64,000 bases of DNA from Escherichia coli (GTDB lineage Bacteria; Pseudomonadota; Gammaproteobacteria; Enterobacterales; Enterobacteriaceae). The stretch lies in the NCBI RefSeq assembly GCF_017348835.2, contig NZ_CP071375.1; one strand, written 5' to 3'. A program made the position numbers. This document shows positions 49,526-52,500 of the stretch, in pieces; the first letter of the stretch is position 1; each line of letters opens with the position of its first letter.

Positions 49526-52500
49526 CGCTGCGGCGACGATCCTTTACACCTTTATTGGCGGTTTCCTCGCGGTGAGCTGGACTGACACTGTACAGGCCAG
49601 CCTGATGATTTTTGCCCTGATCCTGACGCCGGTTATCGTCATTATCAGTGTCGGTGGCTTTGGCGACTCTCTGGACGTGATCAAACAAAAGAGCATCGAA
49701 AACGTGGATATGCTCAAAGGGCTGAACTTTGTTGCCATTATCTCACTGATGGGGTGGGGGCTGGGTTACTTCGGGCAACCGCACATCCTGGCGCGTTTTA
49801 TGGCGGCAGATTCTCACCACAGCATCGTCCATGCGCGTCGTATCAGTATGACCTGGATGATCCTCTGCCTGGCAGGGGCGGTGGCTGTCGGCTTCTTTGG
49901 TATCGCTTACTTTAACGAGCACCCGGCGGTAGCGGGTGCGGTAAACCAGAACGCTGAACGCGTGTTTATCGAACTGGCGCAAATTCTGTTTAACCCGTGG
50001 ATTGCCGGGATTCTGCTGTCGGCAATTCTGGCGGCGGTAATGTCAACCTTAAGTTGCCAACTGCTGGTGTGCTCCAGTGCGATTACCGAAGATTTATACA
50101 AAGCGTTTCTGCGTAAACATGCCAGCCAGAAAGAGCTGGTGTGGGTAGGGCGTGTGATGGTGCTGGTGGTGGCGCTGGTGGCGATTGCGCTGGCGGCAAA
50201 CCCGGAAAACCGCGTGCTGGGCTTAGTGAGCTACGCGTGGGCAGGCTTTGGCGCGGCGTTTGGTCCGGTGGTGCTGTTCTCGGTGATGTGGTCACGCATG
50301 ACGCGTAACGGTGCACTGGCGGGGATGATCATCGGTGCGCTGACGGTTATCGTCTGGAAGCAGTTCGGCTGGCTGGGACTGTACGAAATTATTCCGGGCT
50401 TCATCTTCGGCAGTATCGGGATTGTAGTGTTTAGTTTGCTGGGTAAAGCGCCGTCAGCGGCGATGCAAAAACGCTTTGCCGAGGCCGATGCGCACTATCA
50501 TTCGGCTCCGCCGTCACGGTTGCAGGAAGGGTAAGCTGAAGAGCAATTATTTATCTTTTGCTTTTTAACCCGAATGCTCCCTGCCATGCGGTATAAGTTG
50601 CCTGGCAGGGAGTGTTCGGGACAATTGCTATTTGCCCACCCTGCACAGATGAACAAAATTGCCGCTATCGGTACCTTCAACTTATGTCCTGCGGCTGGTT
50701 GGTTGAGCGAGATAGAATGGATTCGATATATTCCCGCTGTTTTTCAGCCACGTCAGTTTTTTCGCGCCTTGCTTGGTCACTCCGCTCGATTTCAGGTAGG
50801 ATCTGGCAGTAGACCACTGGAAGCAGCGTTTTTTACTCCACTCTTCGGCTCCCCCTGCGCTGTTACGCTCCTCCTGGGTCATATTCGCCCATTGTACGAT
50901 GTCTCCGAAGGTGAACGTGACCCATTTCTGCGGCCCTGTCAGCTTCAACTCACCCAGGGCGGTAAGCCCGTCGTTCTTCAGGTAGTTTCTGGCAGTAGTC
51001 AGCGAGAGGTTTCTTTCCTTACACCACTTTTCTAAATAACCAACCGTTTTTCGCACATACTTGTCTAAGGCTGCCCACTGGCGGATATGTTCAAGGGTGA
51101 ATTTGGCATATTCATGCGGCCCGTTTACCTTCACCTGTCCCGCGTAGTTCAGGCCGTGGTCGGTCAGGTAATTCCTGGCATTGTGAATATTAAAATGATT
51201 GAGCGAACTCCATCCTTTTACTCCCTGTAGAGCGTTTCGCGCCTTCTGGGTCATAGCCGCCCATTTTCGCATATCGTCTACAGTCAATTTAACATATTGC
51301 TGTGGCTCGTCCGGCGCTGGCTGGTCCTCGGTGGTCTGTCTGGTGTTGTTTATGTCGTCATTTGCAGCATTTGGTGGGATGTTGCTTGTATTACACGATT
51401 GCTGTAATTCCACATCGTTACGCCACGCCAGCGGAGACATATTTCCAAATTCTCGCATGCCATTGTTGGTAAAGTGTGTTTCTTCTCTTCCGTATTGCTG
51501 GGCGGGGGAGTAGCGAGCTGCTTCATGCACCCTGTTTTGACTTTCATCCGTGAGTATTGGCCGTACGGACCAGAGATCAAAGGTTCCATACTGACTGCGT
51601 GACATCAGTGTTGTGACAATGGAGTGAAACAGCTCAAGAGCAATATTTGTACTGGTGCACACACCGCTCTTGCTGACTGCAATTTTCACGAGATTGCCGG
51701 TGTTGTCATGCTCTTGCGTCTTCGTGAAGGTGATGGTGAAACCGGCAACATCGAAGGTGAACGGTTCAGGAAGTTGCAGATCATTTGCACTTACCACCGG
51801 TTGAAACTGATGTCGATGCAGTTCGGCCGTCATGGCAGCAGCCAGCAAGTGAACCTCTTCAGGAACCAGTGGAGCTACAGCCATGCCCGTGCTGTAGTCC
51901 GCATCCCTTTTGATATAATTATTCATCTGCACCAGAAGCGTCAAAGTTTCCAGACAACTACTCGGGAGTTGCTGCGGTGGAATATAGGTTGCTGCGCTCG
52001 TATTAAGGTTGGATAGTGGTCTCATGTCATGCTCTCCGTATCCTTACAGGGTTGATGTTTCGTATTAAGTCGTAGCCATCCGCACGGCTCCGGGTGATTC
52101 TGTCAGTGCACCAGGATGTACACTTCGGATGCGTTCTTGAAGTAGTAAACAATCCGATCATTCTGGTGTTAATGGTGTAACTACGAAAACACCCGTAAAA
52201 AGCAGGAGGAATGCCAGTTATTGGCGAATTTACAATGCTGCCATCGGGGTGAGTTTCATGACGATTATTATTTTTTACGCCTTGAGTCATCGCGGTAAAT
52301 AATAATTTCTTCCTGTGTTTCATAAAGTATATAGTTACAATTACTCGTGAATTTTGTCGGTAATTCGACGTTAGCCCTCAGCCAGAGAAAAATTAACTCG
52401 CAAAATTTTTAATTTATCGTTAGGGGAATGGGTAAATTATATTCTCGACCCTAATTACAAGGGGCATCTGAAAGCAGTGGCGTCTCATCTTATTACTTCT

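Follow-up and report, generated by a model that had tools for sequence, protein, structure and literature searches.

A strain-variable spacer between putP and efeU carries a strong hairpin without a U-tract in Escherichia coli

Results and discussion

The putP–efeU region and its features

The region downstream of putP, the gene for the sodium/proline symporter, was investigated in a 64,000-nucleotide stretch of Escherichia coli DNA (contig NZ_CP071375.1 of assembly GCF_017348835.2), which is referred to here as the window. On the opposite strand, a convergent gene encoding a protein of 447 amino acids ends 146 bp from the end of putP, and within this gap, in the putP 3' untranslated region, there is a hairpin. 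The features of the region are as follows.

49026–50534, + strand: putP, sodium/proline symporter (PF00474, E = 3e-149, and annotation); stop codon at 50532–50534
50536–53083, no strand: strain-variable segment of 2,548 bp, from the alignment of carrier and non-carrier genomes
50569–50620, + strand: extended hairpin, 18 continuous pairs and 4 inner pairs
50577–50612, no strand: hairpin core, a perfect inverted repeat of 10 bp around a loop of 16 nt
50621–50680, + strand: stretch with more C than G (C 18, G 9 in 60 nt), a putative Rho-loading region
50682–52025, - strand: orphan gene for a 447-aa protein, convergent with putP (the 'inserted gene'); N-terminal domain PipB2-like, C-terminal part with three ~62-aa repeats
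53084–53215, + strand: conserved efeU upstream region, ~130 bp; its 5' edge marks where the variable segment ends on the right

The inverted repeat had been noticed in a sequence-only reading of the window, which proposed that it could be a shared terminator, a REP-like element, or the recombination junction of an inserted island. As a description of the DNA this was accurate. The arms ctccctgcca (50577–50586) and tggcagggag (50603–50612) pair perfectly over 10 bp and enclose a loop of 16 nt, the repeat is placed between the putP stop codon (TAA, 50532–50534) and the stop of the convergent open reading frame (50682–52025, - strand), and on neither strand does the sequence or a consensus terminator scan show a U-tract following the stem.

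Structure and stability of the hairpin

The structure is larger than that first description, as the 10-bp repeat is the core of a longer helix. In RNA of the + strand the stem has 18 continuous pairs (50569–50586 with 50603–50620), of which 11 are G-C and two are G.U (50575.50614 and 50576.50613), followed by four inner pairs (50588–50591 with 50598–50601). The folding energy on this strand is -39.9 kcal/mol, with z = -8.35 relative to shuffled sequences. The - strand fold is weaker, at -32.7 kcal/mol, because the G.U pairs turn into C.A mismatches there. Among 31,970 overlapping 60-nt folds covering both strands of the 64-kb window (mean -12.9, standard deviation 4.9), the hairpin ranks first in stability and the second best fold has -34.9. 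It is also more stable than the REP copies and the terminators of the window.

Perfect 10-bp repeats as such, with loops of 3–30 nt, are expected by chance about 1.6 times per 64 kb and 10 are present. The exact palindrome pattern of 9+9 bases occurs once, where shuffled sequences give an expectation of 0. The hairpin is real and is no chance match. A search of the genome collection for the 9+9 palindrome with a variable gap returned at least 120 matches in unrelated phyla, which is uninformative against an estimated chance number of 70–150 in 298 Gb. With the covariance models of Rfam 15, no match of E ≤ 1 was found on either strand of 50300–53300.

A variable spacer bounded by conserved functional sequence

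The distribution of the segment was determined in 5,426 complete E. coli genomes using a 601-bp query, the putP part of which has a match in 5,418 of them. Genomes in which the match continues past query position 236 (window 50535) were counted as carriers. There are 645 carriers (~12%), including O157:H7, O55:H7, O145:H28, and strain 042, and the other genomes have instead 86 bp, which include a canonical putP terminator. Alignment with insertion-free genomes, which had been put forward as the way to find the exact breakpoints, located both of them: homology ends at 50535, one base past the putP stop codon, and restarts at 53084. Therefore, the variable segment is 50536–53083 and stands in place of the 86 bp.

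The insertion-free strain CEA601S illustrates the other arrangement, in which putP is followed by the 86 bp and then by efeU. Starting 42 nt past the putP stop codon, the 86-bp allele holds a textbook intrinsic terminator with a 13-bp stem, GCAGAGGGCAAUcagugAUUGCCCUCUGC, and then GUUUUUU. Local alignment of this allele with the segment showed no significant similarity (score 23; shuffled sequences 20.4 ± 2.6; p = 0.17). Two short sequences of the segment, GGGCAATtgctATTTGCCC (50619–50637) and TTTTTTCTC (53061–53069), were considered as remnants of the insertion-free terminator, and were rejected on this alignment result.

The ends of the segment show no significant terminal inverted repeat (p = 0.29) and no target duplications, the sole direct match being one of 14/16 bases (p ~0.04) that lies away from the junctions. 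Domain searches of the segment found no integrase, transposase, or recombinase domain. On the right, the efeU upstream region opens with the same TTTTACAT in E. coli with the segment, in E. coli without it, and in two Citrobacter genomes. Each edge of the segment falls where conserved functional sequence ends, at the putP stop codon on one side and at the efeU upstream region on the other. Over the segment, the window is 92–96% identical to other carriers, a divergence of up to ~8%, and in the shared efeU upstream region only 4.5% of the columns are variable. The segment is either old or evolving fast.

Clusters of PutP at 90% identity mix genera, and Citrobacter served as the outgroup, with gene order compared in two genomes. 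The order putA-putP-[spacer]-efeUOB is kept and the spacer content differs. In Citrobacter amalonaticus the spacer contains a three-gene Hcp/DUF8209/DUF1493 module on the - strand. In the other Citrobacter it is ~950 bp and contains a long element with inverted ends, similar to a MITE. Since the spacer is filled differently in Citrobacter, the E. coli 'insertion' represents one allele of a spacer with contents that change from genus to genus. It is better termed one of two unrelated alleles of a variable spacer that is bounded by conserved functional sequence.

Immediately 3' of its putP and ahead of a convergent gene, C. amalonaticus also has a long hairpin, unrelated to that of E. coli (-36.9 kcal/mol, z = -6.9). 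It might be speculated that the putP–efeU spacer is a recurrent cargo site of the Enterobacteriaceae, occupied in E. coli by an effector-like orphan gene, in C. amalonaticus by an Hcp module, and in the second Citrobacter by a MITE-like element, with the hairpin as a functional part of this hotspot. The hairpin would then be a DNA or RNA structure that promotes or targets the acquisition of cargo, or a site of double-stranded RNA processing that couples proline uptake to the effector-like gene. We consider this combination a long shot.

The hairpin is neither a junction nor a dispersed repeat

Is the palindrome the place at which the segment was joined to the chromosome? Long palindromes serve some recombinases, and this one is near the left end of the segment. 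As the divergence extends from 50536 to 53083, however, the palindrome lies 34–42 bp inside the variable segment, starting 34 bp from its left edge if the extended stem is considered (50569) or 42 bp if only the core is (50577). It is absent from all of the insertion-free strains, so it belongs to the strain-specific segment. The breakpoint itself is directly after the putP stop codon and away from the palindrome, there are no terminal inverted or direct repeats, the segment contains no integrase or transposase gene, and its edges are those of conserved functional sequence in both E. coli and Citrobacter. It is the putP stop codon, and not the palindrome as had been suggested, that bounds the island.

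The second possibility, a REP-like or MITE-like mobile repeat, would predict copies elsewhere. A 58-nt hairpin query has exactly one match in each of the 645 carriers and none in the 4,781 other genomes (E ≤ 10; in this 28-Gb database, partial matches shorter than ~20 nt would go unreported). The window does contain real REP copies, at 32145, 38125, and 56600–57240, yet local alignment of the hairpin with three of them gave scores of only 12–13, against a shuffle mean of 13.0. There are likenesses to REP and BIME sequences, in that the hairpin is an imperfect GC-rich palindrome, is intergenic, and is located 3' of a gene, and REPs also stabilize upstream mRNA. Unlike the REPs, which are present as hundreds of dispersed consensus copies, it is single-copy and specific to its locus. 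The REP-like identity that had been proposed does not hold.

Nor has the hairpin been found in any other context. In the phage collection there is no counterpart of the whole segment, and the plasmid collection matches it only with pieces of E. coli chromosome filed as plasmids. An exact-pattern scan found no hairpin in viral contigs and found it in 16 metagenome contigs, all of which have the putP and segment context. No pair of integron attC core sites (inverse RYYYAAC and GTTRRRY) is present on either strand of 50500–50720. Taken as a whole, the proposal that the palindrome is a junction, an attachment site, or a mobile repeat is largely refuted, and the probability that we would still assign to it is minimal.

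An intrinsic terminator without a U-tract?

The position of the hairpin suggests a role at transcript ends. A long GC-rich stem exactly between two convergent stop codons, standing where the other allele has a canonical terminator, could be a shared bidirectional intrinsic (Rho-independent) terminator for both genes. This was one of the original suggestions, and part of it stands: the convergent genes are separated by a strong hairpin that lies where the canonical terminator would be. The U-tract, on the other hand, is missing on both strands. After the stem the sequence reads ACAAUUGCUAUUUGCCC on the + strand and UUAAAAAGCAAAAG on the - strand, and the downstream sequences, ACAATTGC on the + strand and TTAAAAAGC on the - strand, contain no U-tract within ~2 nt. 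A consensus terminator scan of 50300–53300 found nothing terminator-like at the hairpin on either strand. Thus, the hairpin has the GC-rich stem-loop of an intrinsic terminator and, without a U-tract after the stem, lacks the defining feature of this class.

In bidirectional terminators between convergent genes, the stem is preceded by an A-tract and followed by a U-tract. The hairpin resembles them in being common to two convergent genes, and differs from them in that its sole U-rich run is 5' of the stem on the + strand. Because bidirectional terminators need the A-tract 5' and the U-tract 3', this run is on the wrong side for both directions. The terminator of the insertion-free allele is likewise a strong hairpin on the same strand and at a similar distance from the putP stop codon, 42 nt there as compared with 34 nt (extended stem) or 42 nt (core) here, but its sequence is unrelated and it has the U-tract that is lacking here. 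Intrinsic termination at the hairpin is therefore improbable in our judgement, and a 3'-end stem-loop lacking a U-tract would suit its features better.

A candidate 3'-end stem-loop of the putP mRNA

If the hairpin does not terminate transcription, what might it do? The best explanation would be that it is a stem-loop without a U-tract that protects the 3' end of the putP mRNA and possibly also that of the convergent gene, for which we estimate about an even chance. In carrier strains, where the canonical putP terminator is gone, the hairpin occupies the equivalent position. We infer that transcription of putP, and possibly of the convergent gene, ends beyond the hairpin through Rho-dependent or otherwise diffuse termination. 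The transcript may then be trimmed back to the stem-loop by 3'-to-5' exonucleases, and the stem-loop would both set and protect the steady-state 3' end.

Structures of this kind are known. Dar and Sorek (2018; PMC6061677) described Rho-dependent transcript 3' ends of E. coli that consist of a stable stem-loop with no U-rich tail and no preceding A-tract. There is a mild bias of C over G downstream of these stem-loops, and protection from PNPase and RNase II is credited to them. The hairpin after putP is like this class in being a stable stem-loop soon after a stop codon, without a U-tract after or an A-tract before the stem. A likeness in the mild excess of C over G just downstream is less clear: C:G on the + strand is 18:9 in the first 60 nt, evening out at 24:24 by 100 nt; on the - strand it is 15:10. 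The C-rich stretch at 50621–50680 may be a region of Rho loading. There are differences as well. The hairpin lies between convergent genes in a strain-variable segment, and its stem is unusually long and stable for the class (18–22 bp, -39.9 kcal/mol). Typical 3'-end stem-loops are exceeded by a stem of 18–22 bp, which is a point against a protective stem-loop.

Position and retention both have a bearing on this explanation. By analogy, the location of the hairpin argues for a role at the putP 3' end, since the other E. coli allele and C. amalonaticus also have hairpins after putP. It has been retained in 645/645 carrier genomes and 16/16 metagenome contigs despite a segment divergence of up to ~8%. 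Most likely the hairpin is an ordinary mRNA 3'-end hairpin, a further example of a known and ordinary kind of element. It takes the place of the canonical putP terminator in ~12% of E. coli genomes, O157:H7 included.

Variation among carriers and evidence for selection

The sequence from 50300 to 50900 is 100% identical to that of E. coli strain PE164. The C at 50577, which completes the 10 bp of the perfect repeat, is found in this strain and in one other genome. All 11 of the other aligned carriers and 16/16 metagenome contigs have a T there, so that the common form has 9 perfect base pairs and a G.T. Among 12 aligned carriers the 9-bp arms of the core (50578–50586 and 50603–50611) are invariant. 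Variants are present in the loop, at 50590 (G/C) and 50597 (G/A) and as a 7-bp duplication in O55:H7, and at four positions of the stem, 50569 (C/T), 50577 (C/T), 50612 (G/C), and 50613 (T/C).

Only one of the four stem changes, the G-to-C at 50612 in strain PS10-3, breaks a pair. Those at 50569, 50577, and 50613 exchange C-G for U.G or G.U for G-C and, as a result of this wobble compatibility, 99.4% of the cells in the alignment of 12 carriers are paired on the + strand. Read on the - strand, these sites become A.C mismatches, and by our own count ~83% of the cells are paired. This variation weakly favours a structure that is read on putP-sense RNA, with the strand preference depending on four positions (p ~0.06–0.12).

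Has the stem been kept by selection? No stem pair shows a compensatory double change among the 12 aligned carriers, so selection on it is unproven. Stem positions vary at a rate similar to that of the flanking spacer (4/36 as compared with ~15/110), the wobble compatibility of three out of four changes is not significant under transition bias (estimated p ~0.2), and the invariance of the 18-nt core is only weakly surprising (p ~0.1).

These results lead to the main rival of the protective stem-loop, that the hairpin is a structural relic without a selected function, which arose for example by local inverted duplication or template switch and persists because the block is inherited. A stem that varies about as much as its surroundings and without compensation, conservation statistics short of significance, and the lack of a match to any Rfam family are all as would be expected of such a relic. 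The neighbouring gene, too, evolves fast, with 49 non-synonymous and 29 synonymous codon differences between the window and strain 042, which suggests that constraint may be weak across the region. Against this, a neutral relic would not be expected to be the most stable fold in 64 kb, nor to be kept in 645 carriers and 16 metagenome contigs while its loop varies. The common stem variants are all wobble-compatible on one strand, and analogous hairpins follow putP in the other E. coli allele and in C. amalonaticus. A neutral origin and persistence is a possibility to be taken seriously, albeit one that we tend to doubt.

A different function for the same helix would be as a substrate for RNase III, which might cut the 18–22 bp helix, or the overlap of convergent sense and antisense transcripts, and so couple the expression of putP to that of the 447-aa gene. 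The helix is near two turns in length, and the convergent genes have no canonical terminator between them. This proposal is pure inference, however, and nothing separates such a target from a passive protective hairpin; we regard it as very unlikely.

The neighbouring 447-aa gene and its surroundings

Two further candidates near the hairpin were considered and set aside. An open reading frame of 98 aa (52027–52323), upstream of the 447-aa gene, was taken as a possible chaperone gene. It is disrupted by frameshifts and stops in 8/8 other carriers, and this neighbour of the inserted gene should be corrected to a non-gene. For the AT-rich stretch upstream of efeU, the candidate was Esr41, an EHEC-specific iron-related sRNA. 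The literature places Esr41 in O-island 43/48 (SpLE1), between z1181 and z1182. Searches of the literature under guessed locus tags (Z1516, ECs1262, and others) returned nothing relevant to the locus.

Pfam, NCBIfam, and PADLOC gave no assignment for the 447-aa protein. The homologues returned by a word-indexed search were all from E. coli and at least 84% identical to it, and exhaustive searching with HMMER turned up distant relatives for two parts of the protein separately. The N-terminal part (residues 29–163) is found again in paralogues within E. coli, one of which, a 513-aa open reading frame beside ygjK, has three copies of it. This paralogue, which is present in some E. coli, has no inverted repeat downstream. 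Single-sequence structure prediction was unusable (pLDDT 34.6). The alignment-based AlphaFold model has a mean pLDDT of 71 and exceeds 90 over the C-terminal repeats. For the N-terminal part of the model, the best PDB match, a weak one, is 2lez (E = 0.011, target TM-score 0.56), which is the N-terminal domain of PipB2, a type III effector of Salmonella; a faint NCBIfam hit to PipB agrees with this.

The C-terminal part (residues 240–430) is made up of a ~62-aa repeat in three copies. This repeat also forms long tandem arrays in proteins of Salmonella enterica subsp. indica, S. bongori, Pantoea, and Paraburkholderia, which also have SET and, in one case, OTU domains. These features suggest that the 447-aa protein is a putative secreted, host-directed protein. 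Uncharacterized, effector-like, and present in O157:H7, it is of more interest than the hairpin beside it.

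A candidate effector between putP and efeU

The variable segment, present between putP and efeU in some E. coli genomes, contains the following features in the window:

50682-52025, - strand: gene for a 447-aa 'hypothetical protein'
52027-52323, - strand: ORF of 98 aa, immediately adjacent to the 447-aa gene at its start
52324-53083: AT-rich stretch of ~760 bp that separates the region of the 447-aa gene from the conserved region upstream of efeU

The 447-aa protein, which is encoded by ~12% of E. coli genomes, O157:H7 among them, looks like a secreted effector, judging from its sequence and its modelled structure. 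Its N-terminal domain has a weak Foldseek match to that of PipB2, a type III effector of Salmonella (2lez, E = 0.011), and the protein has a faint match to NCBIfam PipB. The C-terminus is comprised of three copies of a ~62-aa repeat, where the model has a pLDDT >90. This repeat is also found in long arrays in SET/OTU-domain proteins from Salmonella subsp. indica, S. bongori, Pantoea and Paraburkholderia. Between carriers of the segment, non-synonymous codon differences in the gene outnumber synonymous ones (49 against 29).

Elsewhere in the species, a related ORF adjoins ygjK in E. coli 64A:C:

L130 2913-4454 (E. coli 64A:C record): 513-aa ORF

The domain found at the N-terminus of the 447-aa protein occurs in this ORF three times in tandem, at 41%, 32% and 34% identity. 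The domain thus forms a small paralogue family in E. coli. The PLSDB gene table for the record, which is incomplete, lists no feature for the ORF.

Remainder of the variable segment

The 98-aa ORF is not a gene: it is intact in this window only, being disrupted by frameshifts and stop codons in all eight of the other carriers compared, and PGAP calls no gene there. The AT-rich stretch is without a conserved ORF and has no match in Rfam; it may hold an sRNA or the promoter of the 447-aa gene. Listed with it is a perfect inverted repeat of 10 bp, made up of A and T only, at 52264/52297.

Repeats in and beside the variable segment

A direct match of 14 of 16 positions, TGCGCACTATCATTCG (50488-50503) against TGGGCACTAACATTCG (52989-53004), joins the end of putP to a site in the right-hand part of the segment (p ~0.04 by shuffling). 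It lies off the segment junctions, and recombination across it would change the C-terminus of PutP. The match is probably due to chance.

In the hairpin that follows putP, O55:H7 strain CB9615 (L006 ~3551-3564) has a 7-bp tandem duplication, ATGCGGT, aligned to window positions 50586-50592, which lengthens the loop and leaves the stem untouched.

The putP-efeU spacer in Citrobacter

The content of the putP-efeU spacer differs across genera. In C. amalonaticus (L139 5510-7640) it holds a module of Hcp, DUF8209 and DUF1493. The spacer of another Citrobacter (L140 5510-6460) is ~950 bp and, by eye, contains an element of ~600 bp with inverted ends of ~60 bp, at roughly 5594-6190, which is possibly a MITE.

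REP sequences

Downstream of the efe operon there is a further group of repeats:

56600-57240: run of REP-like hairpins

These are spaced at ~100 bp, with near-identical 60-nt folds at 56681, 56781, 56981, 57081 and 57181, and the run is a BIME-type array. More REP copies are present in the window at 32145 and 38125.
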